Positions 19,989-38,198 of a stretch of DNA of 64,000 nucleotides are shown one piece after another. The notes under the pieces are model-generated. The model was not told where the DNA came from and did no database searches. It saw nothing but the letters and a program-made list of their open reading frames with translations. The stretch comes from an uncultured archaeon. Lineage in GTDB: Archaea; Aenigmatarchaeota; Aenigmatarchaeia; CG10238-14; SCSR01. The position numbers and the translations under genes are program-made. Within the stretch, counting starts at the first letter, position 1. The number at the start of each line of letters is the position of its first letter. The DNA lies in contig CAZMWU010000001.1 of assembly GCA_964570195.1 (NCBI GenBank), positions 7,433 to 71,432 of the forward strand, written 5' to 3'.

Positions 19989-21005
19989 TCATATGAAATG
20001 AAAATAAATAAGATAAAACCCGATGAGTGATACAACTATTTGCATTAAAATCAGAGTTAATGTGATTTGTTTCTCAGTCAACGTCTTTATGTTCATGATT
20101 AAATGTGTTATACTGTAGATTTTTTTACCATATGGTGCATAAAGTTTTCCATCCGATTTTAATAACCCTAAACTACTAGCTTTAAATTTGGATTTCATTT
20201 TTAAGAGAAATTCTACGATGAAAGGCGTAATTAGAATGATACCAAGTTTTTCCATATTACCCGCGATTACTCCACCAGCAACTAACGCCCCAAGAAGATA
20301 AGTTAATGAGTCACCTGGCAAGATTTTTGCTGGATACCAGTTGTATATTATAAACCCAATCAAAGATACAGCAGCAACTAAAAATAGAATAGCTATATTA
20401 CTTTGATTTAAAAAGGCAAAAATGCCAAGTGTCAGCATGTAAACTATTCCCATACCAGATTCCGATCCATTAAATCCCCCCAACATATTGATAGCATTGC
20501 TTGCGCCGATAAACCCAATAGGTATCAACAACAAGGGGTACAATATACCGAAATCAATGATTCCAAAAAATGGCAAATTTACTGTTGAATCACCTACGCT
20601 AATTACCATTAACGGTATGGCTGCAGGTAAAGTGAGCAGTGGTTTAAGCCATTGAGGAAGTCCAACACGAATATCTCTTTTTTTCGATTCGTATCGTATT
20701 ACATTCAAATCATCAAGCAGACCAATTAATGTGACTATCAGAACAGACGACATTATTGCAAATAAATACAAAATAGCGTTTGATATTCCCACCAAAAAAG
20801 TTGTTAAGCCGATGTAAGTTAAAAGACCTCCTAAAATACCAGAAGATACAGCTAACCCCCCAGAAGATGGTAATATTGGTTTATTTTTTTTATGTTGATC
20901 TATACCTACTACACCAGTTCTACGTAAAAATTTAATTAGGAATGGAATAGCAAAGAAGGTTGTAAAAAAGGAAACGATTAAAGAACTTAAAACAATTAAA
21001 TCCAT
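19989..21005 (-). CDS. UDP-HexNAc:dolichyl-phosphate HexNAc-1-phosphate transferase (MraY/WecA/AglH family).
   Basis: Polytopic protein with IGLLDDLNV (DDxxD) and NAINMLGGFNG motifs. Confidence 0.75.
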   Translation of the reverse strand: MDLIVLSSLIVSFFTTFFAIPFLIKFLRRTGVVGIDQHKKNKPILPSSGGLAVSSGILGGLLTYIGLTTFLVGISNAILYLFAIMSSVLIVTLIGLLDDLNVIRYESKKRDIRVGLPQWLKPLLTLPAAIPLMVISVGDSTVNLPFFGIIDFGILYPLLLIPIGFIGASNAINMLGGFNGSESGMGIVYMLTLGIFAFLNQSNIAILFLVAAVSLIGFIIYNWYPAKILPGDSLTYLLGALVAGGVIAGNMEKLGIILITPFIVEFLLKMKSKFKASSLGLLKSDGKLYAPYGKKIYSITHLIMNIKTLTEKQITLTLILMQIVVSLIGFYLIYFHFI

Positions 21006-21025: not shown

Positions 21026-22636
21026 TTATTGATTATTGTATATAACTTCATAAATTATATTACCGTCGCATCCGCCCTGTTGGATGCACTGTTCCAATGG
21101 AGGTCCATTCTCATAAACTTTTTTGAATATTTCTGGATTATTTTCTAAAAGTCTCACGAAATCAAATGAATAACTTTCTTGTGACGGTTGTTGACTCAGG
21201 CTGAATTTTTGAATAAAAAGATGTGTTATACCATGCATTTCCGACACGTCTCTTATAGATTCAGGATCATTGTTTAGTCGAATATCTGCCCATGCACTAC
21301 TTACGGTTCTTTGACAACTATACGCAGCTCTAGTACCCCAGAACGTCATTAATACAATATTCTCATCAAGATTTTCTTTCACCCAGTTACAAGACTCGAA
21401 AAATAAAGGAGAAAATGTCTTAACCTGTCCCATTACCGCTAACTTGTTAGTAATATTTTGGTAACCGAAAACCAATATTATCATTACAATAACTAAGCCC
21501 AAATATTTCTGATATTTTTGTAAAAGTGTATATAACTCACCCCAATACCGTGAACTTACAATAGCTATTATTGTTGCCCATGGAAGTAGTTGTCTTGCCG
21601 CATCTTCTGACCTTGACCTTATTTGGTACATTGCAATTAACCCAAGAATTAACATTACTATTAAAATCGGGGTAACCTTATCACGTTTCTTAATAAGTAT
21701 AATCAACCCACCAATAAGTCCTATAAGAATAAGCCATATGTTACCATATGTGAAAATTATAAAGTTCTGAAGTCCAAACCTTAGTAAGTCTAGTTCTGTG
21801 CCACCAGCTAAAGTTCTAGTTTCAAATTTATATTTTTCTTCAAAATTTCTGATTTCGCAACCACTTTCATCAAATAGAGGCAATTGTTGGCATTGGGGTG
21901 TCCCATAATAGTACAAATTTCTCAAAAAAAATGGCGCCGAAACAATTAAAACAATCGTACCATAGATTAGATAATTTTTAAGGCTATCACGAAATCTTTT
22001 TTCTTTGAATGAAGTATATAAAAACATTGCAGCTAAGAATGCAAAGATCATTATACCTGCATGTTTAGTTAATATTGCAAGACCAGCAAACAAAGCTGAT
22101 AGCACAAAATATTTTCTATTTTCCTCCTTTACAGCAATCGAAAAAGTTAAAATAAATAGACTAATATAAAGTACGAATAACATTTCATCGAAAGACAAGA
22201 CAGAATATGTTATGAAAGAAGGGAAAGTAATTAATAAAAGAGTTGCAATTAACCCAACTTCCCGATTAAATAATTTTTTTGCCGTTAAAAATACAGAAAT
22301 TCCAATTAAAGAGGCTATAAATGGTGGAAATAGTTTGAAAATAATTTCATGTGTTCCCAGAACGAAAAGGAACCCTGCCTCTAAAATATTAAACAATGGT
22401 GGTCTGGCGTAGTGTGCTTTGTAAACTTTTGTAACTCCGAATGGAACCCACTGAGGATATTCTACATTTCCAGCTATGTACCTAGCTATTTCAGCGTGAA
22501 AACCCTCATCACCAAAAGTTATATTCGTTTTAAGAGAAACATTAGCCTCCAGAATAAAAAGCAATCCGATTAAAATCAACAATAACAAAAACAAATATTG
22601 CGAGGTTAGTCCAATTTTCGTTTTATCACCCATCAA
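21026..22636 (-). CDS. GT-C-fold glycosyltransferase (GT39/ArnT/PMT-like, dolichyl-phosphate-sugar dependent).
   Basis: 536 aa; N-terminal TM helix followed by a loop containing DEGFHAE (a DE-type motif); about 11 TM helices and a C-terminal soluble domain. Confidence 0.55.
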   Translation of the reverse strand: MMGDKTKIGLTSQYLFLLLLILIGLLFILEANVSLKTNITFGDEGFHAEIARYIAGNVEYPQWVPFGVTKVYKAHYARPPLFNILEAGFLFVLGTHEIIFKLFPPFIASLIGISVFLTAKKLFNREVGLIATLLLITFPSFITYSVLSFDEMLFVLYISLFILTFSIAVKEENRKYFVLSALFAGLAILTKHAGIMIFAFLAAMFLYTSFKEKRFRDSLKNYLIYGTIVLIVSAPFFLRNLYYYGTPQCQQLPLFDESGCEIRNFEEKYKFETRTLAGGTELDLLRFGLQNFIIFTYGNIWLILIGLIGGLIILIKKRDKVTPILIVMLILGLIAMYQIRSRSEDAARQLLPWATIIAIVSSRYWGELYTLLQKYQKYLGLVIVMIILVFGYQNITNKLAVMGQVKTFSPLFFESCNWVKENLDENIVLMTFWGTRAAYSCQRTVSSAWADIRLNNDPESIRDVSEMHGITHLFIQKFSLSQQPSQESYSFDFVRLLENNPEIFKKVYENGPPLEQCIQQGGCDGNIIYEVIYNNQ

Positions 22637-23601: not shown

Positions 23602-23732
23602 ATAGCACTTGTATGAATACTTTATATTAATATTTAAATTTTCACTTCTTTCTCATATATTCACAAATAGGAGTTAGAGAGGCTCCCGTAACAAAAACAA
23701 CGCTTATGCAACATTAGAAAAGTCAAATTATT

Positions 23733-24986
23733 TTGAAATTTAAATCTGTTACTATTACTATAACTTATACTATGAAATGTCAAGTATGCTCAAGTGAGAA
23801 CTTATACAATGTCTTAGATTTGGGGCATCAACCACCAAGTGACGATTTTTTGACAGAAGAGAGATTAAACGAAGAGGAAGTTTTTTATCCATTAAAAGTA
23901 ATTTATTGCGAAGATTGTAAACTCGTCCAACTTAACTATGAAATTGACCCAAATGTTGTTTTTAGAGAAAACTATGTTTACATGTCGTCTTCAAACAAAA
24001 TTTTTATTCAGCACGCACATTCCCTAGTAGATAGGTTAGTACATGAATTCAAGCTAACTGAAAATGATTTTGTAATAGATATAGGATCCAATGACGGTAC
24101 TTTACTCGAGGCGTATAACCCATATAAAATAAAAATTCTTGGTACAGATCCGTCAAGTGTAGCCAAAGTGGCAATTGGAAAGGGTATTCCTACAATAAAC
24201 GCATTCTTCAATGAGGAACTAGCAGAAACAATTATTAAAGAACATGGTAAAGCAAAGATTATTACTGGTCTAAATGTTTTCGCACATGTAAAGGAATTAA
24301 AATCATTACTTAATGGAGTTAATGTGCTTTTAGAAGATTCAGGAACTTTTATAACAGAATCTCATTACCTTTTGGACATGATTGAGAAACTACAATATGA
24401 TGAAATATACCATGAACACTTGAGGTACTATTCCATAGAATCACTTATTAATTTGTTCAAGCGATTTAACATGGACGTATTTCATGCCGAGCGTACTAAT
24501 AATCAGGGCGGATCAATAATTGTATTCGCTTGCAAAAAAGGTCAAAAAAATATATCAGATTCTGTTTCGTCAATTCTTGAAGTTGAAAAAGATTACAATT
24601 TAAATTCTCATAAAACTTTCGACAACTTTAGAGAAAGAGTCAATGAAATTAAAATGAAACTGCGTAACATGTTGTATGAAATCAAAGCGAATGGTAATAT
24701 CATAGTAGGGATTGGAGCACCTGCAAAAGGCACAACTTTATTGAATTTCTGTAAAATCGATTCAAATATCCTTGACTATTTAGTGGAGACCAACCAATTT
24801 AAAGTTGGTAAATATTCACCAGGTATGCATATCAAAATCCTAGATGAGTCCACCTTAATAAAAGACCAACCTGAATATGCGTTAATGTTACCATGGAATA
24901 TTAAGGACAATATAATACCTAAATTACGCGAGAAAGGTTATATCGGAAAAATAATTATACCAAATCCCGAACCTACTATTGAGTAA
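23733..24986 (+). CDS. Sugar C-methyltransferase family protein. It has an N-terminal Zn ribbon, a class I SAM methyltransferase domain and a C-methyltransferase C-terminal domain.
   Basis: CQVCSSENLY...CEDC zinc-binding N-terminus; VIDIGSNDG motif I; about 415 aa, typical of the TylC3/NovU-type family. Confidence 0.65.
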   Translation: MKFKSVTITITYTMKCQVCSSENLYNVLDLGHQPPSDDFLTEERLNEEEVFYPLKVIYCEDCKLVQLNYEIDPNVVFRENYVYMSSSNKIFIQHAHSLVDRLVHEFKLTENDFVIDIGSNDGTLLEAYNPYKIKILGTDPSSVAKVAIGKGIPTINAFFNEELAETIIKEHGKAKIITGLNVFAHVKELKSLLNGVNVLLEDSGTFITESHYLLDMIEKLQYDEIYHEHLRYYSIESLINLFKRFNMDVFHAERTNNQGGSIIVFACKKGQKNISDSVSSILEVEKDYNLNSHKTFDNFRERVNEIKMKLRNMLYEIKANGNIIVGIGAPAKGTTLLNFCKIDSNILDYLVETNQFKVGKYSPGMHIKILDESTLIKDQPEYALMLPWNIKDNIIPKLREKGYIGKIIIPNPEPTIE

Positions 24987-24990
24987 AACT

Positions 24991-25806
24991 TTATAATGTT
25001 TTTTTATAAGCAATCCAATATAGCTTATCTATATTTTCTATTTCATAATTATACTTTTCAAGTATAGCTTCGCACTTTTTAACATGTTCTTCATCCCACG
25101 CCTCAAAAATTATTTTTGCATTACCCTCCTTTAAAACATTTTCCATCCCTTCCAATACCTGAGGTTCAGCACCCTCCACATCAATTTTAATAAAATCAAA
25201 GTTCTTTATCTTTAGTTCTTCTGCTATATTATCTACAGTATCGGCGTTAACTTTTATGTAGTTGTTTGAGACTTTAACAGAAGATGCTAGAACAGGTTGA
25301 TTTTCATGTGAAAAGAGTTTTAATGGTTCTTTTTTATTCCAGGCTGCGACTTTGATCGGAATAACATTTTCACACTTATTGAGTTTCATATTTTTAATTA
25401 AAATGTCAAAATTTTTGGGATGTGGTTCAATTGAGACTACCATGCCTTCTTTCCTGATTTGATTACTTATCATAACAGTATACTTTCCTACATTTGCACC
25501 TATGTCTAAAAACATTCCTTTATTGATTGATTTGAAGTATTTTCTTAGATTGGATTCAAATCGTTCCGAAATTATATCCAAGTTAACATTATCCTTACAA
25601 AAGAAAAGTCCGTCTGAGTTTTTAACAATAAATCCAGAAAAGAACAAACTAGGATGCACTATTAATTTTTTTGCAATAATGAAACTTACACGATTTATAG
25701 GATATAATAGTAAGAATAAAAAATTATGTAAAAATATCTTTACCTTGTCTTTTAGCATATAGCCATCTTTAAAGCGTGTAATAAAAATATAAAATCGTTT
25801 TAACAT
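24991..25806 (-). CDS. FkbM-family methyltransferase.
   Basis: FLDIGANVGKYT motif. Confidence 0.65.
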   Translation of the reverse strand: MLKRFYIFITRFKDGYMLKDKVKIFLHNFLFLLLYPINRVSFIIAKKLIVHPSLFFSGFIVKNSDGLFFCKDNVNLDIISERFESNLRKYFKSINKGMFLDIGANVGKYTVMISNQIRKEGMVVSIEPHPKNFDILIKNMKLNKCENVIPIKVAAWNKKEPLKLFSHENQPVLASSVKVSNNYIKVNADTVDNIAEELKIKNFDFIKIDVEGAEPQVLEGMENVLKEGNAKIIFEAWDEEHVKKCEAILEKYNYEIENIDKLYWIAYKKTL

Positions 25807-25810
25807 TCTA

Positions 25811-26548
25811 TCACTCAGGTCTATCGATTGAGGTTATTTCACCATTTTTAACTGATACACTACCACCATTCGGTACATTTAATTTCCCTGTCAAAATATC
25901 TCTCACAATATTAGCAATAACTTCAGGTGATTGTTGACTTTCAGCATCATTAAAAAGTTCATCTCTCATCCGTGTGTTCACACCAGCAGGACATATTGAA
26001 ACACAAGATACGTTGGTATTTAATTCCTTTACCTCTTTTCCAATGGCTGCAGTCAAACCCTGTAATGCAAATTTACTTGCAGAATAAATAGGCAGTATAG
26101 GATTGCTTTTTTTACCTGCACCTGAAGACATGTTTATAATTATCCCGCTGTCTTGCTTTTTCATTACAGGCAGAATTTCCCTGACAAAATAAAATATAGA
26201 ATCGACATTGGTTTTGAAAATATTTTCATATTCCTCGTCTGTCACATCTTCAATGTATTTTGTCTTGTTCGTCCAACCGGCACTATTTACTAGTATATCT
26301 ATCCTACCATATGTGGTTATAATATCATCTAAAAATTTCTCTATCTGTTTCTTTTCTTTTACATCAACCACATAATATTCGCATTTACCATTATCGGATA
26401 TAATCGCTTTACAGACACCCTTCAAATTGTCTTCGTTCCGAGCACATATAATAACCTGAGCACCTTCCTTAGCCAATACTTCCGCTATGGATTTGCCAAT
26501 ACCTGTGCTACCTCCTGTTATTATAGCGATTTTTTGCTCTAGTTTCAT
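25811..26548 (-). CDS. Short-chain dehydrogenase/reductase (SDR).
   Basis: TGGSTGIGKS cofactor motif; YSASK catalytic motif. Confidence 0.85.
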   Translation of the reverse strand: MKLEQKIAIITGGSTGIGKSIAEVLAKEGAQVIICARNEDNLKGVCKAIISDNGKCEYYVVDVKEKKQIEKFLDDIITTYGRIDILVNSAGWTNKTKYIEDVTDEEYENIFKTNVDSIFYFVREILPVMKKQDSGIIINMSSGAGKKSNPILPIYSASKFALQGLTAAIGKEVKELNTNVSCVSICPAGVNTRMRDELFNDAESQQSPEVIANIVRDILTGKLNVPNGGSVSVKNGEITSIDRPE

Positions 26549-26608
26549 GTAAATCTACAATTACTATATAAATATAAAATTAATTGTTACAATAATTAGA
26601 GGCATTAC

Positions 26609-26992
26609 ATGTATAAAACAACAAAAATTTCACCAGTCTTTACCGATGAAAGAGGTACTATTAGTGATATACTTGAAACCACAATAAATCATATAGGTCT
26701 GATAACTTCGAAAAAAGGATCTATTAGAGGTAAACATTACCATAAAAAATCTACACAATACATCTTTGTTATTAGCGGAAAATTAGAGTCTTTTACAAAA
26801 GATATGAATGTAGAAAATTCGAAGGTAGAATCACATATACTGGTTCCAGGTGATTTGGAAACAGTATCGCCAATGTTAGCTCACGCCCATAAGGCGCTTG
26901 AAGATTCAGTTTTTCTTAACTTCACTACAGAATCACGAAAAGAGAGTGGTTATGAAGACGATACAATTAGAGTAGAGATGAATTTAGAATGA
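26609..26992 (+). CDS. Small cupin-fold protein (FdtA/WxcM-like sugar 3,4-ketoisomerase or RmlC-like epimerase candidate).
   Basis: 127 aa; GKHYHKK...YIFVISG cupin motif; ATGA-coupled to the downstream epimerase/dehydratase. Confidence 0.4.
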   Translation: MYKTTKISPVFTDERGTISDILETTINHIGLITSKKGSIRGKHYHKKSTQYIFVISGKLESFTKDMNVENSKVESHILVPGDLETVSPMLAHAHKALEDSVFLNFTTESRKESGYEDDTIRVEMNLE

Positions 26993-27924
26993 ACTGGGAA
27001 GGTAAAAAAGTAGTTGTAACCGGCGGCGCTGGGTTTGTAGGTTCTCATCTGGCTGAGAAGTTAGTTAATTTAGGGGCCGATGTGACGATAGCAGATATGA
27101 TAGCTAAATCAACCACTATTAACCTTGAGGAGATTAAGAACAGAATAAAAATAGTCGATATAGATATATCAAAAAAAGATGATTTTAATAAACTTGAAAA
27201 TGATCAAGACTATTTATTTCATTTGGGAGCCGTTAGTCAACCTCGTACATGTCAAGAAAACCCTGAACTAGCCTTTAATGTTAACGTTGTAGGAACCTTA
27301 AACACATTAAACTTCGCCACAAAAAGTAATGTTAAAAAATTCATTTTTTCTTCTTCTGTACTTCTTTATGGAACACCAAAATATCTCCCGATAGACGAGA
27401 ACCATCCTTTGGATTTGTCGAATAATTTTTATAGCTTGACCAAAAAAATAGGAGAAGACCTTTGCGACTATTATAGTACTGTAAAGAACTTACCGGCAAT
27501 TTATTTAAGATTTTCTAATATGTTCGGTCCCAAACAAGCTTCAGACTATATAATACCAACCATAATTATTCAAGCTATCAAGGATAAAAAGATAGAGGTT
27601 TGGAACGATCAATTTGTAAGAGATTTTACATTCATTTCAGATACGATAGACGCACTTATCACATCTGTGGAAAGTGACTTTATAGGAGGTCCTGTCAACA
27701 TAAGTTCTGGTAGCAAGATAAAGATAGCTGAAGTAGCTACTAATATAGCCGGTTATACGAACGCCACAATAAGTTCATTAAATAAAAGCCTATCTTCACC
27801 TCTAATTTTACATTGTGCTAATGATTTGGCGAAAAAGACATTAGGATGGTCTCCAAATGTGTCTTTCGAAGAAGGTTTGAAAGCAACCTTTGATTGGTAT
27901 AAAAATAATTTGCACAGATTTTAA
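26989..27924 (+). CDS. NAD-dependent sugar epimerase/dehydratase (extended SDR).
   Basis: VVVTGGAGFVGSHL motif; YSLTK Yx3K. Confidence 0.8.
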   Translation: MNWEGKKVVVTGGAGFVGSHLAEKLVNLGADVTIADMIAKSTTINLEEIKNRIKIVDIDISKKDDFNKLENDQDYLFHLGAVSQPRTCQENPELAFNVNVVGTLNTLNFATKSNVKKFIFSSSVLLYGTPKYLPIDENHPLDLSNNFYSLTKKIGEDLCDYYSTVKNLPAIYLRFSNMFGPKQASDYIIPTIIIQAIKDKKIEVWNDQFVRDFTFISDTIDALITSVESDFIGGPVNISSGSKIKIAEVATNIAGYTNATISSLNKSLSSPLILHCANDLAKKTLGWSPNVSFEEGLKATFDWYKNNLHRF

Positions 27925-27953: not shown

Positions 27954-29066
27954 TCATAATTTCGAGTCTGGTATTGTGGAATGATTATAGGTTCTGGCAA
28001 CGTCTTCGTACACCCTTAAATGATGTTCTGCCACAGCTTTCCAATTCGCTAATTCTCTAAATTTATTTATTCCAGGAATATACGAATGATAGTTTTTAAA
28101 TATCTCTTTTATACCCTCAGCTATTTGTTCAGGGTTTTTGGTCTCAACTACAACACCACAGTTGAATTCTTCTACCGTTTCACTTATAGGTCCGGTTCTT
28201 GTAACAACTACAGGTATCCTGTATGCGAATGCTTCATTCAATGCTGCAGATTGGTATGGTGCCCATAGATAAGGTAGAACGACAATATCCGCTTTCCTAT
28301 ATAACTCGGACTTTTCCTCTTCGGTTATCCAACCAAACTCAAGTGTAATGTTCTTCAAGTCGTTTTTTCTAATTTCATTCTCAAGCATCCTTACATATGA
28401 TGGATTTATTACTAGTCCTTTTATGAAGAGTTTAAAATCTGGAAGCAACTTCATTGCCTTTATCAAATATTCCAATCCCTTTTCTGGAGCTATTGCACCT
28501 TGAAATAGTATGTTTTTACCCCCTTGTTTTTCAATATCAACAGGGTTCAGTCCATAATAAATCCATTCAGCATCAATCCCACTCTTTAATAAGATCTTTC
28601 TATGAGCCTTGGCGTATACAATTATCTTAGTAGCCCTTTTAATCACCATTTTTTCGAACCATTTAACTATGATGTCTTTAATATTTCTGGATGATGTGTG
28701 CAATTCATTTAACGTCACAACTACAGGGATACCGAGATTTAGTGCATTTATGAGTCTCATGTTCGCAATCAAAGTTTTGAAATATGCAAGAGGTTTGAAT
28801 ATACTTTTTTGATCCAAATGTCTACCACTAGCTATATATTGGACGTGTAAGACATCTATGTTTTCTTTTTTTATTATACCAGCAATATCTTTCATGAAAT
28901 TCTTCGTTAATGCGACTTTGTAATTGCATTCCGAATTTCCTAAACCAATTTTTACTATTTCACATTTTCCTTTCAGATTTTCTGTAATATTTTCTAAAAA
29001 AAGTACAATCCCTCCTTGTTCTGGCGGAAATCTGCCAAAAAAACCCACTTTAATCATATTTTTCAC
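27954..29066 (-). CDS. GT4-family glycosyltransferase.
   Basis: 370 aa GT-B fold with an ExxxxxxxE-type C-terminal region. Confidence 0.65.
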   Translation of the reverse strand: MKNMIKVGFFGRFPPEQGGIVLFLENITENLKGKCEIVKIGLGNSECNYKVALTKNFMKDIAGIIKKENIDVLHVQYIASGRHLDQKSIFKPLAYFKTLIANMRLINALNLGIPVVVTLNELHTSSRNIKDIIVKWFEKMVIKRATKIIVYAKAHRKILLKSGIDAEWIYYGLNPVDIEKQGGKNILFQGAIAPEKGLEYLIKAMKLLPDFKLFIKGLVINPSYVRMLENEIRKNDLKNITLEFGWITEEEKSELYRKADIVVLPYLWAPYQSAALNEAFAYRIPVVVTRTGPISETVEEFNCGVVVETKNPEQIAEGIKEIFKNYHSYIPGINKFRELANWKAVAEHHLRVYEDVARTYNHSTIPDSKL

Positions 29067-29092: not shown

Positions 29093-29971
29093 TTATTTCT
29101 CCTCATCGAGAAAATGTTTATAATAATCCTTTTTAGTGCTTCTTATAATTTCACAATCTATCAAGGCCTTCTCCAAAACAGCCTTCATACCATTTTCAAT
29201 GAAAAGAGGATCAAAGTCATTTAAATAACAATACGCTACAAACATTTCTCTCGCAAAGAAATTATTAAACCATGCGTGTATAGTCGATGAAATTAATTTG
29301 TTTATAGCAATCTTCTTATCCAACTTTTCCACACCAGTTCCCCATTCTAGGAAATATGTTTTCTCAAGATTGGCAGTCTTTTCTACTTTCAACATTTTTG
29401 ATAAATCAATTCTCAAATTTGGATCGACGTACAGATAAAGTGGCGGCAATTTAGAAATGATGTATTTTGCAAATAGTTTTGCTTTGTTCATCGGAGATAG
29501 TCTTAGATTTTCGACATTTTTTGAATGAAAATAGATACCAGCCTTTTCTGGAAAAGAAAATATACGGCCGTTTTTTGCTAAAATTACTGTATCATCCCCC
29601 AAAACGCCGAAATTTCTTCTAGCCAAACCGAATACTGTCGACGATTTTCCCATTTCAGACCAAGCAGATATCAAAAATCCTTTACCGTTTTTCGTTATGC
29701 CACCAGAATGTATTAATGTGCAACCCTTTTCCAAAAGTTTAATTTCAAGAAGAATGTCTATTATTACAGCTATGCCGAAAAAACTTCGTGTGAATTTTGT
29801 GAAATAAAATTTCGTCTTCTTCTTTTTCAAATCCTTAATCAAAATTTTTTGCACTGATCTGCCGTAAGCTGTGTAGTCAAGAAATAATGTGTCATTTCCC
29901 CCCCGAAATTTCAGACCCAGCTTGTCGTACTTGTCTTCATCAAAATCGATATCGGTTTCTCTTATTTCCAA
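29093..29971 (-). CDS. HPr-kinase C-terminal-domain-like P-loop protein (hypothetical kinase/phosphotransferase). TTG start; the open frame continues about 120 nt upstream without ATG or GTG.
   Basis: LIHSGGITKNGKGFLISAWSEMGKSST matches the HprK-type P-loop region (H-x-S/A...GxSGxGKS). Confidence 0.4.
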   Translation of the reverse strand: MEIRETDIDFDEDKYDKLGLKFRGGNDTLFLDYTAYGRSVQKILIKDLKKKKTKFYFTKFTRSFFGIAVIIDILLEIKLLEKGCTLIHSGGITKNGKGFLISAWSEMGKSSTVFGLARRNFGVLGDDTVILAKNGRIFSFPEKAGIYFHSKNVENLRLSPMNKAKLFAKYIISKLPPLYLYVDPNLRIDLSKMLKVEKTANLEKTYFLEWGTGVEKLDKKIAINKLISSTIHAWFNNFFAREMFVAYCYLNDFDPLFIENGMKAVLEKALIDCEIIRSTKKDYYKHFLDEEK

Positions 29972-30172
29972 ATCTATGCTCTTAGGTTTACCTATGAAAT
30001 ATTCAGGTAAGATGTCGACGTTCGAATCTATGCCGACAATATCGTGAATGTTGTAAATTGGTATTTTATCACCGCTTCTCCAAAGATGAATTTAATTTAT
30101 CGGTTTTTATTGTTATCTTAACATTAAGATGGCTATTTAAAAGTTACCATTGTAATATAACCAAGTGATCCT

Positions 30173-31174
30173 GTGGATAAATTAAGGTTTGCTATAGTCG
30201 GCTGCGGTAAGATGGGAAGCAGGAGAATAAATGTACTTAAAAACCATCCTGAGGCGAAAATAGTTGCTTTAGTAGACACAAATGAAGAAAAGGTTAAAAT
30301 TTTATCTACCGAACTAGGATGCGAATATTATGTGGATTATAAGGAAGCTTTTAAAAGAACTGATATAGACTGTGTTATTGTAGCCACTCCAAATAAGTTT
30401 CATGCTCCAATTACTATTGCTGGCTTGGAAAGCGGTAAACACGTGTGGTGCGAAAAACCTCTTGCTAGAAACCCTGTCGAAGCTAGGTCTATGGTTGACG
30501 CGGCAATAAGAACCAAAAATTTCCTTAAAACAGGGTCCAATATGAGATATTTCCCAAATTTTGTAAAGGCCAAAGAATTGGTTGACGGTCTTGGTATAGG
30601 TAGTTTGCTCTTTTTAAGAGGGTGGATAGGAAATAATGGACAACAACTAGAAGGCTGGTTTAAGGATATAGAACTCACTGGCGGTGGAACATATCTTGAC
30701 AATGGTTGTCATATGTTAGATCTTGTGAGATGGTTTCTTGGGGATGCTGAAAACTGTATAGGGCATGCATGGTCTAAACACTGGTCCAGTATGATAAACT
30801 CTGAAGATAATGCATTTGGTGTATACAAGTTTGCCAACGGGGGTAGCGCATTTGTCCACTCATCGTGGACAGACTGGAATGGATATGCTTATATAGAGAT
30901 TTATGGTACAACAGGGTTTATAATCGTCGATAGCAGAGGTCAAAACAATAAAACAATTTTTGGTGACAATAAAGGCGTTATACACGAATTTGATTTCGGC
31001 AATCTTCCTGTACAATCTTACAAACTAGAAGTCGACGACTATATCAAAGCGATAAAAGAAGGTAGACAACCAGTGGCTACAGGATACGATGGATTGCGTG
31101 CTGTGCAGATGGCTTGTGCGGTTTACGAGTCATCTAAAAATGACGGGAAAAGCGTAAAAATAGATTCTTTATAG
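30173..31174 (+). CDS. Gfo/Idh/MocA-family oxidoreductase.
   Basis: IVGCGKMG Rossmann motif, EKP motif and the C-terminal alpha/beta domain. Confidence 0.8.
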   Translation: MDKLRFAIVGCGKMGSRRINVLKNHPEAKIVALVDTNEEKVKILSTELGCEYYVDYKEAFKRTDIDCVIVATPNKFHAPITIAGLESGKHVWCEKPLARNPVEARSMVDAAIRTKNFLKTGSNMRYFPNFVKAKELVDGLGIGSLLFLRGWIGNNGQQLEGWFKDIELTGGGTYLDNGCHMLDLVRWFLGDAENCIGHAWSKHWSSMINSEDNAFGVYKFANGGSAFVHSSWTDWNGYAYIEIYGTTGFIIVDSRGQNNKTIFGDNKGVIHEFDFGNLPVQSYKLEVDDYIKAIKEGRQPVATGYDGLRAVQMACAVYESSKNDGKSVKIDSL

Positions 31175-31187: not shown

Positions 31188-31799
31188 GTGAAACAAATGA
31201 AAGAAACCCCTATTTTCGATTGGGATTCTGAATGGATGACTTTTAAAGGACTTAATTTTTTTGGCAGGTTACTTTATAATGATATTGAAAAAACTTTAAA
31301 CTCATTTTTGAAACAAAATAATTTAAATAAAAATATTACTGTTCTTGATTTCGGTTGCGGAAAAGGCACTACACTAAATATTTTCAGAAAACTAGGTTAC
31401 AGGAACTCGATCGGTACAGACACAAGCAAATTTGCTTTAGAGTTGTGTAACAAGCTTTATGGATTCAAACTTGGCAAAGACGTTTTTCTGTCTAATGACA
31501 AGCATGTCAATCAAAAATTTGATCTTGTTATAGCAGATGGGTTAATGGAACTATATAAAAACATAGCAAACATATCCAAAGAAATCAGCAAAAAAACGAG
31601 AAAATATATTGTTCTTATAGAACCTAACAGGTTTTCATTTATGCATAATCTAAAAAGACTATTGGGGAGAAACTCTAAAATGTATTCACATCGTCTAGGT
31701 GAAATAAAATATATCTTCAAAAATATTGGATTTGAGACTATTCGCGTAGGAAATTGTAACTTTAGTGAACATTGGGTAATATTTCTTGAAAGGAAATGA
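31188..31799 (+). CDS. Class I SAM-dependent methyltransferase.
   Basis: VLDFGCGKGTT motif I. Confidence 0.55.
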   Translation: MKQMKETPIFDWDSEWMTFKGLNFFGRLLYNDIEKTLNSFLKQNNLNKNITVLDFGCGKGTTLNIFRKLGYRNSIGTDTSKFALELCNKLYGFKLGKDVFLSNDKHVNQKFDLVIADGLMELYKNIANISKEISKKTRKYIVLIEPNRFSFMHNLKRLLGRNSKMYSHRLGEIKYIFKNIGFETIRVGNCNFSEHWVIFLERK

Positions 31800-32895
31800 T
31801 TTAATGAAAATAGCTCTAGTCAATAATAGTCATCCATTCTCTGGAATGGGTAAATACGCATTTAATCTGTTAAATTCTTACATGCGACAAAAAAAATCTG
31901 TAGAAATGTTTTATCTTGAAACTCCGGATAATAAAATCAAATCCCTAAACGGGGTTAATAAAATCCAAAGAAATTTAGGTTCGATTGAATTGAATAAAAC
32001 CCTTTTACCTTATTTTATCTTCCCCAAAAAAATACCAGAAGGTTACAATGTCTACCACGCTACAAATCAGTTTCTTGCGAGACTGGCGTTATACAAACCT
32101 CGTTGCGTGATAACGCATCATGATATACGACCAATTATATTGTCACATGATCTTAAAATGTGGATGGTCGGCAGAGTTTTAAGATATTTGTTGAAATCGT
32201 ATAAAAAAGCACATAAAATAATAGCAATAGCAGATGTTATAAAGGAGGATTTACTCAAGTTAAAAATCATTCCCGAAGAAAAAATTACTATTGTATATCA
32301 CGGATACGATAAAGGTTTATACAAACCCATGTCAAAAAAATCAGCTAGGAAAAAATTGGGATTGCCACAAGATATCAAGATATTATTGAATGTAGGTGCA
32401 GAAGAACCAATTAAGAATATACCTCTTTTGTTGGAGGCTACACGGATAATTCAAAAAGTTGAAAAAGTCTTGTTGGTAAGAGTTGGTGGAGGTATTACTT
32501 CTGGTGGTTATTGGAAAACGTCAGAATCCCTTAAAACAGGGATTGACATTAAAGAGTTTAAGAATGTATCAGAAAAGGATATGCCACTCATCTATAATGC
32601 GGCTGATGTTTTCATCGCACCATATACATATGATGAAGGTTTCATGTTTCCACCTTTAGAATCCATGGCGTGCGGTGTACCAACTGTGCTATCTAATCTT
32701 AAAACATTTGAACAGGGAAGTATAAGGGCGCCAAACGATCCACAGGGACTTGCTGAAGTAGTTTTAAAAATATTAAACAATTCTTTATTACATAGGAAAC
32801 TATCTAGAAAGGCTCTTAAAATGGCTGAAAGATTTTCAATGGAAACCCACCTTAAAAATACTTATCGGGTTTATGAAGAGGTAAGTAAGAAGTGA
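31786..32895 (+). CDS. GT4-family glycosyltransferase.
   Basis: ESMACGVPTVLSN motif. Confidence 0.7.
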   Translation: MKGNDLMKIALVNNSHPFSGMGKYAFNLLNSYMRQKKSVEMFYLETPDNKIKSLNGVNKIQRNLGSIELNKTLLPYFIFPKKIPEGYNVYHATNQFLARLALYKPRCVITHHDIRPIILSHDLKMWMVGRVLRYLLKSYKKAHKIIAIADVIKEDLLKLKIIPEEKITIVYHGYDKGLYKPMSKKSARKKLGLPQDIKILLNVGAEEPIKNIPLLLEATRIIQKVEKVLLVRVGGGITSGGYWKTSESLKTGIDIKEFKNVSEKDMPLIYNAADVFIAPYTYDEGFMFPPLESMACGVPTVLSNLKTFEQGSIRAPNDPQGLAEVVLKILNNSLLHRKLSRKALKMAERFSMETHLKNTYRVYEEVSKK

Positions 32896-32899: not shown

Positions 32900-34003
32900 A
32901 TGATATCAATAGGAGAGCCAGCACTTGATAATGAAGAATTGGAGAATGTAACTAATGCAATCAAAACAAATTGGATATCAGGTCGTGGCGAATACATTTC
33001 TGAATTTGAAGAAAAGTTCAGTAGATTCTGTAATGCAAGTTTTGGTGTTGCCACTTGTAATGGAACTGCTGCAATACACCTCGCACTAGCAAGTATTGGT
33101 ATTAAAAGCGGAGACGAAGTTATCACTCCAACATTTACTACTGTAGCATCAACCAATCCAATACTCCAATGTGGAGGGAGACCTATGTTTATAGACTCTG
33201 ACAATTCGACATGGAATATCGACCCGAATAAAATAGAAGAAAAAATAACTAAAGCCACAAAGGCCATAATGGTTGTGCATCTTTATGGACACCCGTGCGA
33301 CATGGATCCTATCATGAAAATAGCAAACGATCATAATCTTTTAGTAATAGAAGATGCGGCCGAAGCTCACGGAGCTGAGTATAAAGGAAAGAAAGTTGGA
33401 ACTATAGGAGATATAGGGTGTTTCTCCTTCTTTTCCAATAAGATAATTACTACCGGTGAAGGTGGTATGATAATCACGAATAATAAAGAATTGGCAGAGA
33501 CAGCCGCAAATTTAAGAGACCTTGCCTATGGAAAAGGTGATAAGAAATTTCACCATGAGAAAATCGGTTTTAATTACAGAATGACAAACTTACAAGCTGC
33601 TATAGGGGTTGCCCAGATGGATAAAATAGAAAAATTCATTGATATAAGGAGAAAAAATGCAAAAATATACGGTTCTTTACTGAAAGACATCGAGGGTATA
33701 ACACTGCCACCGGAAATGCCATGGGCTAAAAATGTCTATTGGATGTATACTATATTAATTGAAAAATTGTTTGGTCTCGACAGAGACAATCTGATTAAAT
33801 TATTGAAAGAAATGGGGATAGATACAAGACCAACTTTTTATCCTGTACATTTACAACCAATATACCAACAATTATTCGGTAGCCAAAAACTGCCTGTGGC
33901 AGAAGAACTGAGTATCAAGGGTATAAATTTGCCCTCTGGCAATACCTTAACAAAAGAACAAATAGAGTTTGTTTGTGAAAGTATAAAACAATTTAAAAAT
34001 TAA
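32900..34003 (+). CDS. DegT/DnrJ/EryC1/StrS-family PLP-dependent sugar aminotransferase.
   Basis: DIGCFSFFSNKIITTGEGG motif; paralog of 6223-7356. Confidence 0.85.
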   Translation: MISIGEPALDNEELENVTNAIKTNWISGRGEYISEFEEKFSRFCNASFGVATCNGTAAIHLALASIGIKSGDEVITPTFTTVASTNPILQCGGRPMFIDSDNSTWNIDPNKIEEKITKATKAIMVVHLYGHPCDMDPIMKIANDHNLLVIEDAAEAHGAEYKGKKVGTIGDIGCFSFFSNKIITTGEGGMIITNNKELAETAANLRDLAYGKGDKKFHHEKIGFNYRMTNLQAAIGVAQMDKIEKFIDIRRKNAKIYGSLLKDIEGITLPPEMPWAKNVYWMYTILIEKLFGLDRDNLIKLLKEMGIDTRPTFYPVHLQPIYQQLFGSQKLPVAEELSIKGINLPSGNTLTKEQIEFVCESIKQFKN

Positions 34004-34007: not shown

Positions 34008-34928
34008 TTAGAACAGTCTTCTTAATGCATATTCTAGTGCAAATCTTGCAGCAAAACTAATTCCTTTATATCCCAGTTCTGTAGGTAATCTGCCGTCGTT
34101 CAAGGCACTTCTTATTTGGTCACCATTAGAAAAAACGATAAATCCAACATGTTCCCATGCGTCTCTTGCTTTTGTCCATTCTCCTCCTTCACGAAACCAT
34201 TCAGAATCTTGTCTAATGCGAGTTTCAAATACGATATCCGTATTACCAAAATTGCTCGCATCTGTTACAATACCAACTAGTTCTTTATTTACAATATCTT
34301 TTGGTTTAACATCTGTTTCTTCATACAGTTCTCTATCCACACCTTTAAACAAACTACGTGTACCTATGCAATAAGATGGAGTCTTTAGTCGCTTAATTAT
34401 ATAATCAAGATTTCTACTTTCCCAATTCGGTATAGCGTCTTCGAAACCAGCAACTAGATGCAAAAACAATGGTAATCCCATCATTTTACCATCTTTTCTG
34501 TATGCGGCTCTTATTGGTAGAGCTAGTTTACTATCACTTGTTATTAATATGTTAGCTGGGCCGACAGGCAGTGAGAAAAAAGCTTTGGGATCACCAAAGT
34601 ATCTTTTACCAAATTCCATTTTTCTACTAACTTCATAACTGTCTTTTGGTATATCATACCAGCTTACAATCCCTAATTGTAACTTTAATTTCCCATCTTC
34701 TCGGATTTGATGGCCTCTATAAGTAACTTTAAGATCACCTGGCGTCATTTGTCCTACAGTCAATAATTCAACAAGTCTATTTGACCAGATATCAAACGAT
34801 AAAACTGGCGACTGTTTTCTAACACACGTAACTTCATCTCTAGAATATGCTCTCAAATCTTCCCATCTGCGTTCAGGGAGCCAGATATATGTTTTTTGCA
34901 ATAATCCTTTTTCTTCCAGTTCGAACAT
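34008..34928 (-). CDS. Hypothetical protein (306 aa). It is Arg/Trp-richer than its neighbours.
   Basis: ORF only; the composition differs from the Lys/Ile/Asn-rich island genes. Confidence 0.3.
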   Translation of the reverse strand: MFELEEKGLLQKTYIWLPERRWEDLRAYSRDEVTCVRKQSPVLSFDIWSNRLVELLTVGQMTPGDLKVTYRGHQIREDGKLKLQLGIVSWYDIPKDSYEVSRKMEFGKRYFGDPKAFFSLPVGPANILITSDSKLALPIRAAYRKDGKMMGLPLFLHLVAGFEDAIPNWESRNLDYIIKRLKTPSYCIGTRSLFKGVDRELYEETDVKPKDIVNKELVGIVTDASNFGNTDIVFETRIRQDSEWFREGGEWTKARDAWEHVGFIVFSNGDQIRSALNDGRLPTELGYKGISFAARFALEYALRRLF

Positions 34929-35773: not shown

Positions 35774-37912
35774 ATGTTAGAGAATTACAACAATTTGAAA
35801 AGTGTACTTCCCACGATTATCAAAACTATATTAATATTACTGGGTCTAGCTTCTATAATTTTTCTAGGAGTTTATATAAGAAGTAGTACCCTTAGCTCAC
35901 CAACTGTTTTAGATTATGATCCTTGGTATTTTTATCGATATGCAGAAGATATTGTTGAGAATGGATATAAACTATTTAAATGGGACGGATTGACTTACTA
36001 TCCACCAGGACGCCCTACAGATATTTACTTAGGATGGTCTTATACAATTGCAATTTTTTATAAAATATTACATTCAATTTTTGATAACATAACTCTAATG
36101 CAAGTAGCTAAATTAGCACCATTAATAATGGTAGGTATAACACCTGTATTTGCCTTCTTATTAGGTAGATTACTTTCAAACTCCTTAGGAGGGTTATTAA
36201 CAGCTTTATTTTCTGTGATTGCACCCACTTTCATAGGTGTATCTATGGCAGGTTATTCAGATTCTGATGTTGTTACAGTCTTTTACATGATTTTATCCAC
36301 ATTAACGATAATTGCAACAATAAGATACTCAAAAAATATACTGCTCTCAATACCCCTTTACTTTTTATCCGTCATTAGCGTTTTGTTATTTACTTTTAGT
36401 TGGAGTGCAGGTTGGCTACCTTTAATTTTGTTCATGGCATTTATACCTTCATTCATAACCTTCAGGATTTTTGAAGAAGTGATTCATCAAAGAAAATTAA
36501 AAATCAACATTAAAAGTGCACTGGCAGATACGAAACATGTGATAATTCCTCTTCTTATCATATTTCTGATAACAAACATTGTAGGATATTATCTCGGTTT
36601 TAGAACAATGTTCCACTCTTTACTAGGTGGATTAGCATTCGCTGGAATAGGTGGAGAAAGATTAATAGTCAACATTTCTGTTGCAGAACTCCAGACAGTC
36701 AATGTATTCACCAAAGAAGGGTTCCTGGCCATTGCACAACGTGTTGGTATGCTGTCTACAATAATGGCGCTTATAGGGATACCATTATTAGCGATTTATA
36801 AACTTTTTAGAAAGGAAAAAATCAATTTCGTTGAGATATTTTTATTTTTATGGACACTAGTCTCGTTTTACTTTATAATCAAAGGCATAAGGTTCTCACT
36901 ACTGTTCTCCATTTCTGCTTCACTTTCTACGGGTTATGTAATTGGTAATTTATATAACTACCTTAGGCATGTAAATATTTTGATATTTTCTACAATATTT
37001 GCAGTATTGGGCGTTTTTATTTTCGTAGCAATATCGAATTCAATACAAGTTGGATTTGCATCTGGCGGATTGGTAATAGGTCAAAATTGGTATGATGCAT
37101 TAGATTGGCTTAAACAAAATGCTGATAAAGATTCTTTGGTTGCAACGTGGTGGGATCCAGGTCATATCATTACAGGTTATACAGGATTAAAAGTTCACGC
37201 AGATGGGGCGCATTGTGGTGATGCATGTATACCATACAATCATAACACAAGGATAAGAGATATGGGTAGACTGATGACAACAGACAACGAAACAGAATCT
37301 ATAGAAATAATCCAAAAATATACACATTTGACTGATGAACAATGTGATACAATAAGAAAAACGTTTGGAGATATAGTTCCAAAAGACGCGTGTAAAGACG
37401 TCACAGAAACATATATTTTGGCAACCAGCGATTTGATAGGTAAATATTTCTGGATGAGTTGCTTTGGTAGTTTTGATATGAACTTATGGAAAGAAACTAA
37501 AGGTGACGAATGGAGATGCGATGGAAAAAATTTTGCTCAAGTACCGTTTTCTAATTTCGATCGACAAGGTTTACCGATATATTCGCAAGGTGGTCTTACG
37601 ATTACGCTGCTTCAGAACGGTACCGATTTATTAGCTGTACTCAATGCACCTGGGCAAGGCGTCCGTAATAGAGTAGTAAGTGACATAGTGTTTTATCAAA
37701 ATGGTCAGAGAATGCACTCCAAATCCTACTTTAATAATTCGGTAGATGGTATGGTCTGGATAGACCCAAGCTTTAGACTAATTTTATTCATGGATCCTAC
37801 AATAAGGGATTCTGTATTTACTAAAATGTTCTTTTTTGACGGTGAAGGTCTAGAAAACTTTGAGCTTATGTACCAGAACACAGAAGTCAAAATATATAAA
37901 GCGAAAATTTAG
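35774..37912 (+). CDS. aglB: AglB/STT3 oligosaccharyltransferase.
   Basis: 712 aa; N-terminal multi-TM domain with DxD-type loops; C-terminal soluble domain with WWDPGH, a variant of the WWDYG signature. Confidence 0.8.
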   Translation: MLENYNNLKSVLPTIIKTILILLGLASIIFLGVYIRSSTLSSPTVLDYDPWYFYRYAEDIVENGYKLFKWDGLTYYPPGRPTDIYLGWSYTIAIFYKILHSIFDNITLMQVAKLAPLIMVGITPVFAFLLGRLLSNSLGGLLTALFSVIAPTFIGVSMAGYSDSDVVTVFYMILSTLTIIATIRYSKNILLSIPLYFLSVISVLLFTFSWSAGWLPLILFMAFIPSFITFRIFEEVIHQRKLKINIKSALADTKHVIIPLLIIFLITNIVGYYLGFRTMFHSLLGGLAFAGIGGERLIVNISVAELQTVNVFTKEGFLAIAQRVGMLSTIMALIGIPLLAIYKLFRKEKINFVEIFLFLWTLVSFYFIIKGIRFSLLFSISASLSTGYVIGNLYNYLRHVNILIFSTIFAVLGVFIFVAISNSIQVGFASGGLVIGQNWYDALDWLKQNADKDSLVATWWDPGHIITGYTGLKVHADGAHCGDACIPYNHNTRIRDMGRLMTTDNETESIEIIQKYTHLTDEQCDTIRKTFGDIVPKDACKDVTETYILATSDLIGKYFWMSCFGSFDMNLWKETKGDEWRCDGKNFAQVPFSNFDRQGLPIYSQGGLTITLLQNGTDLLAVLNAPGQGVRNRVVSDIVFYQNGQRMHSKSYFNNSVDGMVWIDPSFRLILFMDPTIRDSVFTKMFFFDGEGLENFELMYQNTEVKIYKAKI

Positions 37913-37918
37913 TGATTT

Positions 37919-38167
37919 ATGATGAAATTACCTTTTTTAAAACTCAAAGGAAAAGACAGACTAGAAACCATGGAAAACTATTCTATATTATTTATTTTCA
38001 TAGGTGCCATGATTCTTTCAGTCGGAATAGGTCTTAATATAATTAGTACACGAGGCCCAAGTGCAATTTTGTCTATGTTCGGTGCTTTAATCAGTTTTAT
38101 TTCAACGATTGTCTTGATTGTTGTTTGGAGTCTGAAAGAATTTAAAAAAGAATCCAGTGAAAAATAA
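37919..38167 (+). CDS. Small membrane protein (82 aa).
   Basis: Two predicted TM helices; ORF only. Confidence 0.25.
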   Translation: MMKLPFLKLKGKDRLETMENYSILFIFIGAMILSVGIGLNIISTRGPSAILSMFGALISFISTIVLIVVWSLKEFKKESSEK

Positions 38168-38169
38168 GG

Positions 38170-38178: not shown

Positions 38179-38198
38179 AAGAAACAATAATCTTAGTT

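Follow-up and report, generated by a model that had tools for sequence, protein, structure and literature searches.

Archaeal N-glycosylation has, to our knowledge, no phosphotransfer step assigned to a P-loop enzyme of the HprK/PEPCK type (HPr kinase/phosphorylase and phosphoenolpyruvate carboxykinase), and a literature search for HprK-like proteins in this pathway found nothing. Here we describe a candidate for such an enzyme, encoded on the minus strand of a 64,000-nucleotide (nt) stretch of contig CAZMWU010000001.1 from an uncultured archaeon (the whole stretch is hereafter the window). The gene is publicly annotated from a TTG codon, but its conserved N-terminus very probably lies 29–31 codons further upstream, where no canonical start codon is present. 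Taken as a whole, the explanation that we favour, with reasonable rather than strong confidence, is an intact protein of 321–323 amino acids (aa) that would be translated from a near-cognate start and would act as a phosphotransferase in N-glycan assembly. In contrast to HPr kinase/phosphorylase (HprK/P), whose P-loop domain it distantly resembles, the protein belongs to a family found beside the oligosaccharyltransferase AglB/STT3.

A conserved N-terminus ahead of the annotated start

The annotated open reading frame (ORF) runs from a TTG at 29971 to a TAA stop at 29095-29093. Its product is 100% identical to a public NCBI protein, P0001, and TTG 29971 is therefore the start used in the public annotation, as an earlier reading of the DNA sequence (the original prediction) had it. 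That reading had also drawn attention to 40 open codons upstream without ATG or GTG. These are indeed present, from 30091 down to 29972; TTG is absent as well, an in-frame TAA at 30094-30092 (minus strand) bounds the frame, and the stretch translates as IHLWRSGDKIPIYNIHDIVGIDSNVDILPEYFIGKPKSID. Such a stretch is unlikely to have stayed open by chance, because the median start-less stretch before the first canonical start is 4 codons among the 55 window ORFs of at least 150 aa, and a single other ORF exceeds 17, its stretch overlapping the coding sequence of the upstream gene. The gene and its parts are as follows.

29093..30064, minus strand: proposed full coding sequence of a PEPCK/HprK-fold P-loop protein, 323 codons plus stop from ATA 30064, or 321 from ATT 30058
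29093..29971, minus strand: publicly annotated coding sequence (TTG start, 292 aa, P0001), judged N-terminally truncated
29972..30091, minus strand: 40 upstream codons without ATG, GTG or TTG, encoding the conserved N-terminus PIYNIHDIVGIDSNVDILPEYFIGKPKSID

A search of 5.8 billion proteins with the extended 332-aa frame as the query retrieved 27 relatives, all from metagenome-assembled genomes or metagenomes of Aenigmarchaeota (DPANN archaea). Relatives within this 'YYNIH' family have E values of 1e-143 to 1e-53, and the full-length ones cover about 95% of the query; 26 orthologues align end to end at 36–68% identity. Comparison with orthologues, proposed originally as the way to locate the N-terminus, showed that they do not start at the TTG position and that the conserved N-terminus is upstream of it. 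Complete orthologues (314–339 aa) begin with M(x0-4)[YFH]YN[IL]H, the counterpart of which in the window is PIYNIHD at 30061-30041. In the family alignment Y4, H7, P20 and F23 are nearly invariant (at least 90% conserved), and YY[ND][IV]H is still N-terminal in homologues at merely 26% identity (L022-L029, where L numbers denote homologous loci). L32, the residue specified by the TTG itself, occupies a conserved hydrophobic position inside the protein ('D-L/I-x-I') in every orthologue. Relative to the closest clade, residues 3–31 are 59–76% identical and residues 32–323 are 60–67% identical, and the region ahead of the TTG carries many synonymous DNA differences from L001 and L003. In an AlphaFold2 model based on the family alignment (predicted local distance difference test (pLDDT) 88.5, predicted TM-score (pTM) 0.86), residues 1–30 form two strands and a turn, with a pLDDT of 93–94.

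Because the N-terminus is conserved, has accumulated synonymous differences and is modelled confidently, we judge the region ahead of the TTG to be coding and the 292-aa annotation to be truncated. The true N-terminus would read (M)(PI)YNIHDIVGIDSN... and the product would comprise 321–323 aa. The doubt first voiced about the start was thus well placed as regards the TTG, but the accompanying doubt about intactness was not: apart from its missing canonical start codon, the gene appears whole.

The reading in which TTG 29971 is nevertheless the true start, giving a 292-aa protein without the first roughly 31 residues, is very improbable. In its favour, no canonical start precedes this codon in the open frame, and gene callers chose it; however, no Shine–Dalgarno-like motif precedes it (aggtaaacctaagagcatagat), it codes for a conserved hydrophobic residue at the beginning of a β strand, and the 29 codons ahead of it are conserved as protein despite the synonymous changes noted above. 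A product started there would lose two strands together with the nearly invariant Y4, H7, P20 and F23, and the gene would be left with a 201-nt 'intergenic' gap of which 120 nt is open frame. The N-terminal peptide that bears on this question is MEIRETDIDFDEDK.

A probable near-cognate start codon

Since no canonical start codon stands at the conserved N-terminus, the most likely site of initiation is one of two near-cognate AUH codons, ATA 30064 or ATT 30058, behind the strong GGTGAT Shine–Dalgarno motif at 30073-30068. The N-terminal peptide would then be (M)PIYNIHDIVGIDSNVDILPEYFIGK or (M)YNIHD.... The elements of the start region, and the corresponding regions of relatives, are listed below.

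30068..30073, minus strand: GGTGAT Shine–Dalgarno-like motif, containing the out-of-frame GTG 30072-30070; relatives have GGTGA, GTGAT or GAGGT 4–7 nt before their starts
30062..30064, minus strand: ATA, candidate near-cognate start, 3 nt downstream of GGTGAT
30056..30058, minus strand: ATT, candidate near-cognate start, directly before TAC (Tyr of YNIH); TTG or ATG is found there in the closest orthologues and ATT in L009
30078..30081, minus strand: GGAG, 5 nt upstream of the out-of-frame GTG; the Shine–Dalgarno motif if the frame has shifted
Window start region: GGAGaagcGGTGATaaa ATA cca ATT TAC AAC ATT CAC
L001 start region: ...gggatcgaaa TTG TAC TAT AAT
L003 start region: ...gaggatgaaa ATG TAT TAC AAT
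L014 start region: ...aagaaa TTG TAT TAT TAC AAC
P0020 lineage (L009, L010, L017): taaGGTGATagaaa ATT TAC TAT AAC ATT CAT
L032 (sister of P0020): GAGGT, 6 nt, ATG TAC TAC AAC
L034 (sister of P0020): GGTGA, 7 nt, ATG TAT TAT AAC
L033 (sister of P0020): GTGAT, 4 nt, GTG CAT TAC AAC

ATA 30064 is the better placed of the two codons by spacing: GTGAT followed by 3 nt and a start recurs at four other window genes (7394 TTG, 30165 GTG, 32892 ATG and 25814(-) ATG), and GGTGAT-aaa-ATA follows the same rule. ATT 30058 is the better placed by orthology. GGTGAT occurs 37 times in the window, mostly inside coding sequence as Gly-Asp, and is not a specific marker alone.

Aligning the 5′ ends of all distinct loci, which represent about 16 lineages, revealed an ATG, TTG or GTG 1–12 codons before YNIH in all lineages but two, those of the window gene and of P0020. 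The P0020 lineage reads taaGGTGATagaaaATT TAC TAT AAC, and because in-frame TGA and TAG codons lie immediately upstream, no canonical start is possible there. In L009 (3843-4003), ATT 3854 opens the conserved N-terminus 5 nt behind GGTGAT, whereas the annotated P0020 (269 aa) begins at a TTG 49 codons downstream; by sequence comparison it is an N-terminally truncated call with the same problem as the window gene, in an independent lineage. The sisters of P0020 carry a canonical ATG or GTG exactly at the ATT codon, behind GAGGT, GGTGA or GTGAT, and L009 differs from them by a single ATG-to-ATT change. In a neighbour-joining tree, the window protein is placed next to the P0002-P0007 clade and P0020 within that of P0011/P0014/P0017, which indicates that the two losses of a canonical start were independent. 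Gene callers do not accept ATT or ATA as starts, which is why both entries, P0001 and P0020, are truncated; expressing or modelling either (292 and 269 aa, respectively) would yield a protein lacking part of the β domain. Two independent lineages of one family that lack a canonical start and yet keep a strong Shine–Dalgarno motif and a conserved N-terminus are a natural setting in which near-cognate initiation could be studied in archaea.

Other short entries have different explanations. Several of the shorter representatives of the family (P0043, P0044, P0058 and others) were ruled out as further mis-starts: their N-terminus is truly distinct and carries an ordinary Met. P0018 is a truncated gene call: L007 (2696-2722) has an in-frame ATG 2696 at the orthologous position, giving MFYNLHNL, 8 codons longer, so this case reflects a mere choice by the gene caller and not a further start-less gene. 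In P0015 (L006 6001-6045), an internal ATG sits 3 codons before YNLH, and the protein has probably been called about 13 codons too long.

Several observations weigh against near-cognate initiation. A canonical start is missing in only 2 of the roughly 16 lineages, so initiation of this kind is not a conserved trait of the family. The gap between GGTGAT and ATT 30058 is long, at 9 nt, and ATA 30064 is not at the orthologous start position of the closest relatives. In a Sulfolobus in vitro system, aIF1, the archaeal factor, was found to discriminate against AUU (PMC4705826). Initiation at AUA or AUU would probably be less efficient than at AUG. Moreover, only one assembly of the genome is on record, so that an assembly error or a recent mutation is possible, and a single added base would put GTG 30072, with its own GGAG 5 nt upstream, in frame.

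This last point underlies an alternative in which translation properly begins at GTG 30072-30070, whose frame was shifted by the loss of one base shortly after it; the A4 run at 30067-30064 and the T3 run at 30057-30055 are examples of where that base could have been lost. The deletion could be a recent mutation, making the gene a fresh pseudogene or dependent on leaky initiation, or an error of the one available assembly. One added base gives MIKIPIYNIHD... or MIKYQFYNIHD..., N-termini that resemble MTDPIYYDIH (L016) and MVFYNLH (P0012), and GGAG-5 nt-GTG is a good initiation context. However, this GTG lies within GGTGAT, which is itself the Shine–Dalgarno motif ahead of canonical starts in relatives. 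L009 contains the same embedded out-of-frame GTG, where it lacks an upstream Shine–Dalgarno motif, would need the opposite shift and is clearly not the start; there, ATT replaces ATG by one substitution. The 323 codons downstream are fully intact in the window gene, and neighbouring genes have lengths like those of their orthologues (STT3, 712 aa versus 704–708; RadA, 316 versus 314–320; RPA, 337 versus 334–338), which argues that the assembly is not generally indel-prone. On this evidence we regard the deletion as rather unlikely and lean, without great conviction, towards near-cognate initiation.

Programmed frameshifting was rejected as unsupported, because nothing at the leader suggests a stimulating structure or a known RNA family: folding of 30020-30115 gave no unusual structure (z = -0.01), no frameshift-stimulating structure and no riboswitch, scans of the leader and of the whole window gave no Rfam match in the leader, and no Rfam family, tRNA and rRNA included, reached the gathering threshold in the 64-kb window.

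The AUU start codon of bacterial infC is a classic exception to canonical initiation. The window gene resembles it in having an AUH codon at the start position, a strong Shine–Dalgarno motif and no canonical alternative. In contrast to infC, its start is not family-conserved (2 of about 16 lineages) and there is no evidence of autoregulation; moreover, the host is an archaeon, and rejection of AUU has been reported for archaeal aIF1 (PMC4705826).

A PEPCK/HprK-type P-loop domain

The catalytic residues of the protein are contained in two segments.

29636..29716, minus strand: nucleotide-binding core L117-T143 LIHSGGITKNGKGFLISAWSEMGKSST, with the invariant H119 and the Walker A motif W135-S-E-M-G-K-S-S-T143; aligns to 'LHG...GDSGIGKSET' of HprK/P
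29591..29596, minus strand: D157-D158 of the LGDD motif, nearly invariant; aligned to 'VADD', the catalytic/metal-binding DD of HprK/P

The first of these had been likened to the core of the HPr kinase/phosphorylase C-terminal domain. The resemblance is real but remote: the protein is a distant HprK/PEPCK relative that retains conserved His, GKS[ST] and DD motifs, but as it falls short of the family thresholds and lacks Hpr_kinase_N, it does not belong to the HprK family itself. Pfam Hpr_kinase_C (PF07475) matches at E 0.003 with 17.6 bits against a cut-off of 33.3, and it matches 11 of 27 family members, none above threshold. Among NCBIfam models, HprK_rel_B (E 2.8e-6, 26.7 bits against a cut-off of 200) and HprK_rel_A (15.1 against 200) match the P-loop segment only, hpr-ser (TIGR00679) scores 21.4 bits against 240, and ScmC 14.8 against 125. 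A single-sequence search of the PDB gave no match, and a profile search gave HprK/P chains only (1ko7, 2qmh, 1jb1, 3tqf), aligning T-l-v-H-s-g-g...l-i-s-a-W-S-e-m-G-K-S-S-T...v-l-G-D-D-t-v with TSLHG...LITGDSGIGKSET...LVADDNV of HprK/P; the catalytic motifs correspond to LHG / GIGKSE / ADD of 1ko7. Across the family alignment H119, G139, K140, S142 and T143 are invariant and D157 and D158 at least 90% conserved. No other P-loop family fitted better in this remote-homology comparison, which the original prediction had recommended.

Foldseek comparison of the AlphaFold2 model with the PDB returned 46 chains at E <= 1e-3 with a probability of 1.0, all of them ATP-dependent PEPCK (ATP-PEPCK) or HprK/P but one (8iuf_E2, rank 43). 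ATP-PEPCK matched from E 2e-6 over about 270–400 columns and both domains, and HprK/P from E 4e-5 over the P-loop domain. The N-terminal domain of the model is all-β; no Hpr_kinase_N domain was found by Pfam or NCBIfam in residues 1–114, and separate NCBIfam scans of the N-terminal 114 aa and C-terminal 150 aa gave no match. The C-terminal region is helical, with a family-specific AYCYLND motif. We therefore see in the model and alignment a layout peculiar to the family, in which a β-rich N-terminal domain (YYNIH) would precede a PEPCK/HprK-type P-loop domain. With the Aenigmarchaeota family the window protein shares homology over its full length, including the N-terminal YYNIH and C-terminal AYCYLND. 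When 1.84 billion cluster representatives were searched exhaustively with a profile, 3,801 relatives emerged at E <= 1e-3, 71 of them at E <= 1e-30; those rescanned matched only HprK_rel_A/B-type models, below threshold. Some family members carry a precomputed match to PF27840, for which a literature search found nothing. As judged from the model, the protein is a member of the PEPCK/HprK fold superfamily that belongs to none of the curated families. Distant members include P0126 (729 aa), a tandem double HprK-like protein, and P0176 (416 aa), which is fused to a B12-binding-like N-terminal fragment.

Comparison with characterized enzymes illustrates both the shared scaffold and its limits. 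With HprK/P (PF07475, TIGR00679; PDB 1ko7, 1kkm, 2qmh), the protein shares the PEPCK-like mononucleotide-binding fold and the motif order, that is, a His, a Walker A GxxGxGKS[ET], about 12 residues and a hydrophobic-x-DD. Only about 45 residues align, however, and below threshold; Hpr_kinase_N is replaced by the YYNIH β domain and the helical AYCYLND region is added at the C-terminus, and the protein is archaeal and encoded in an N-glycosylation cluster. That the protein might be a genuine HPr kinase/phosphorylase controlling a phosphotransferase system, as the aligned P-loop, His and DD would suggest, is effectively refuted by its failure to reach the family thresholds (17.6 bits versus 33.3 in Pfam, 21.4 versus 240 for TIGR00679), as well as by the missing Hpr_kinase_N, the short alignment and the glycan-biosynthesis context; no phosphotransferase-system component was found among the scanned ORFs of the 64-kb window.

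ATP-dependent PEPCK (PckA; PDB 6asm, 1j3b, 1aq2) provides the best structural matches to the model over both domains, with a query TM-score of 0.41–0.53, and its P-loop and kinase-2 'GDD' motif are similarly arranged. The window protein differs in being about 200 residues shorter, at 11–14% identity and a root-mean-square deviation of 7–9 Å. It was rejected as a PEPCK, given 323 aa compared with about 530, a target-normalized TM-score of 0.25–0.35 and no Pfam match to PEPCK_ATP (PF01293). The kinases of peptide-maturation systems, HprK_rel_A/B (TIGR04352, TIGR04355), ScmC (TIGR04249) and PadeK/PsmK, are alike in length (280–350 aa) and in placing the P-loop about 100–140 residues from the N-terminus. 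HprK_rel_A/B and ScmC are the best NCBIfam matches, and the DD pair is essential in PsmK, in which the D158A/D159A double mutation inactivates this lasso-peptide kinase (PMC6993621). Their scores, however, are 15–27 bits and confined to the P-loop segment, and in contrast to lasso-peptide kinases the window gene has no context of peptides that are made by the ribosome and modified after translation (RiPPs) or radical-SAM maturases.

A fixed place beside AglB

The gene had been predicted to lie in a glycan gene cluster, and the locus is, more specifically, an AglB/STT3 N-glycosylation cluster. The further claim that a domain of this type is not expected in an archaeal glycan cluster does not hold: the family constantly adjoins AglB in Aenigmarchaeota, and distant homologues are found in glycan clusters too. 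Pattern-based scans identified at least 5 genome loci and at least 16 metagenome loci. The kinase-like gene stands beside AglB/STT3 and upstream of a GT4 glycosyltransferase or a PMT_2 plus GPT pair in every Aenigmarchaeota locus that extends far enough. STT3 is adjacent in L001, L003, L005, L006, L007 and L009; in the orthologous loci it is divergent from the HprK-like gene, at times with one GT4 gene between them. GT4 follows the HprK-like gene directly in L001 (with a 14-nt overlap) and L003, and PMT_2 and then GPT follow directly in L005, L006 and L007; the PMT_2 and GPT pair is shared by L003, L005, L006 and L007 with the window. The loci L006 and L007 are minimal, consisting only of STT3 | HprK-like gene - PMT_2 - GPT. 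L009 has STT3 and GT4, with a Phosphodiest gene downstream. Over homologues of 26% to 68% identity, GT4 is the most constant companion.

More variable neighbours include Phosphodiest (PF01663), which adjoins the HprK-like gene in L009, L020, L034 and L026, hinting at a functional link between the two; B12- or SPASM-type radical SAM genes, found nearby in L009, L020 and L032; and, in L022, NTP_transf_5, an FkbM methyltransferase and a Gfo/Idh/MocA enzyme.

The neighbourhood in the window is arranged as follows.

35774..37912, plus strand: STT3/AglB oligosaccharyltransferase, conserved neighbour of the gene family
35045-35773, plus strand: methyltransferase
34008-34928, minus strand: ORF of 306 aa, no Pfam match at E <= 1e-3
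32900-34003, plus strand: DegT aminotransferase
31786-32895, plus strand: GT4 glycosyltransferase
31188-31799, plus strand: methyltransferase
30173..31174, plus strand: Gfo/Idh/MocA oxidoreductase, divergent, sharing a 108-nt intergenic region with the kinase-like gene
30134-30141: TATA-like box TTTAAATA in the shared intergenic region, about 70 nt upstream of ATA 30064
27954..29057, minus strand: GT4 glycosyltransferase, 36 nt downstream of the kinase-like gene on the same strand; Pfam Glycos_transf_1, E 5.8e-29
22633-27924, mixed strands: epimerases, cupin, short-chain dehydrogenase, FkbM- and C-methyltransferases
21026..22636, minus strand: PMT_2 (GT-C), conserved partner in orthologous loci
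19989..21005, minus strand: Glycos_transf_4 (GPT/AglH-like), conserved partner in orthologous loci
Beyond GPT, mixed strands: further glycosyltransferases, a flippase-like protein and a Phosphodiest/alkaline-phosphatase-family gene (8361-9773)

We infer a promoter role for the TATA-like box, and the kinase-like gene is probably co-transcribed with the GT4 gene 27954..29057. The PMT_2 ORF, taken as 21026-22765 (minus strand), has 43 start-less codons before its TTG, overlapping the 3′ end of an epimerase gene (22633-23601), probably as a chance overlap.

The fold and the predicted chemistry are of familiar types. We found no published account of the family itself, of its two-domain organization, of its constant position next to AglB or of the recurrent ATT at its start codon.

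A putative phosphotransferase and its acceptor

Because His119, the Walker A residues G139-K140-S141/S142-T143 and Asp157-Asp158 are kept, the protein is fairly likely to transfer phosphate from a nucleotide to an acceptor. We propose that it would act in the cytoplasm, co-expressed with GT4, as a nucleotide-dependent phosphotransferase on an intermediate of N-glycan assembly, for example a sugar on a lipid-linked glycan or a sugar or lipid precursor, and that the N-terminal β domain probably helps to bind the acceptor, as in PEPCK. An N-glycan intermediate, in line with the sugar or lipid-linked-glycan kinase first supposed, is suggested by the predicted co-transcription with GT4 and by the AglB/STT3, PMT_2 and GPT neighbours; we consider an acceptor in the glycan pathway, as opposed to a protein or peptide, an even call. 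As an analogy, the bacterial enzymes WaaP, KdkA and LpxK are cytoplasmic kinases of glycan-assembly clusters that phosphorylate lipid-linked glycan intermediates. The analogy is functional only, as their folds are unrelated (protein-kinase-like, or an LpxK-type P-loop), and we detected no homology of the window protein to these lipopolysaccharide core and lipid A kinases.

Two further facts tell against the proposed function: all scores to curated families are far below their cut-offs, and every characterized HprK-type kinase phosphorylates Ser in a protein or peptide, not a glycan. For the latter reason, the main functional rival is a kinase of Ser in proteins or peptides, comparable to HprK/P and the lasso-peptide kinases (PMC6993621); its target would be a glycoprotein, an enzyme of the pathway or a small peptide. 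The best NCBIfam matches, HprK_rel_A, HprK_rel_B and ScmC, are associated with peptide maturation, and a radical SAM/SPASM gene neighbours the homologue in L032. The distant homologue in L022 adjoins an NTP_transf_5 nucleotidyltransferase, which we take to be of the same family as PsmN. PsmN is an uncharacterized nucleotidyltransferase needed for the addition of a hexose to phosphorylated pseudomycoidin (PMC6993621). However, there are no precursor peptide, lasso cyclase or RiPP maturase genes near the window gene, where the neighbours are glycosyltransferases, epimerases, methyltransferases, an aminotransferase and STT3, and a SPASM radical SAM gene is adjacent in one relative only, L032. The minimal loci L006 and L007 hold nothing beyond STT3, PMT_2 and GPT around the HprK-like gene; neighbours are consistently glycosyltransferases or sugar-modifying enzymes among homologues of 26% to 68% identity; and neither the N-terminal nor the C-terminal region matches the HprK_rel families in sequence. 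A Ser kinase thus seems improbable, though it is the strongest competitor to the glycan phosphotransferase that we prefer.

A role as a dolichol or polyprenol kinase is possible. The idea of a 'missing archaeal dolichol kinase' is nevertheless weakened, since archaea already have a Sec59-type enzyme (PMC5898192). More speculatively, and with low expectation, the YYNIH family might be an unrecognized, soluble P-loop kinase of N-glycosylation, acting on a lipid-linked glycan or on a polyprenol or dolichol carrier scavenged by lipid-auxotrophic DPANN archaea, whose expression is throttled in some lineages by an AUU or AUA start behind a strong Shine–Dalgarno motif. If true, such throttled starts would represent recurrent, selected use of near-cognate codons in archaea. 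In any case, the YYNIH protein is a clear candidate for a step of DPANN N-glycosylation that is either missing or peculiar to a lineage.

Other features of the loci

Beside P0014, L032 (4037-6820) encodes a Fom1-like fusion of phosphoenolpyruvate mutase and nucleotidyltransferase, an aminotransferase and a radical SAM/SPASM protein, which suggests 2-aminoethylphosphonate (AEP)-type phosphonate decoration of glycans in some Aenigmarchaeota. In the window, 8361-11078 in the glycan cluster contains the Phosphodiest gene (PF01663, 470 aa) and a sulfatase-family gene (377 aa). The adjacent ORF 7402-8307 (plus strand, 301 aa) resembles UDP-glucose/GDP-mannose dehydrogenases; it has the N-terminal and central Pfam domains but none at the C-terminus, the next gene beginning at 8361, and may be truncated or degraded. 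On its other side, the glycan cluster abuts the gene order RadA - RPA-like OB-fold protein - histone - 74–82-aa ORF - AglB/STT3 (window 35774-40403), and this order from RadA to STT3 is strongly conserved in Aenigmarchaeota (L001, L003, L005, L006 and L008).

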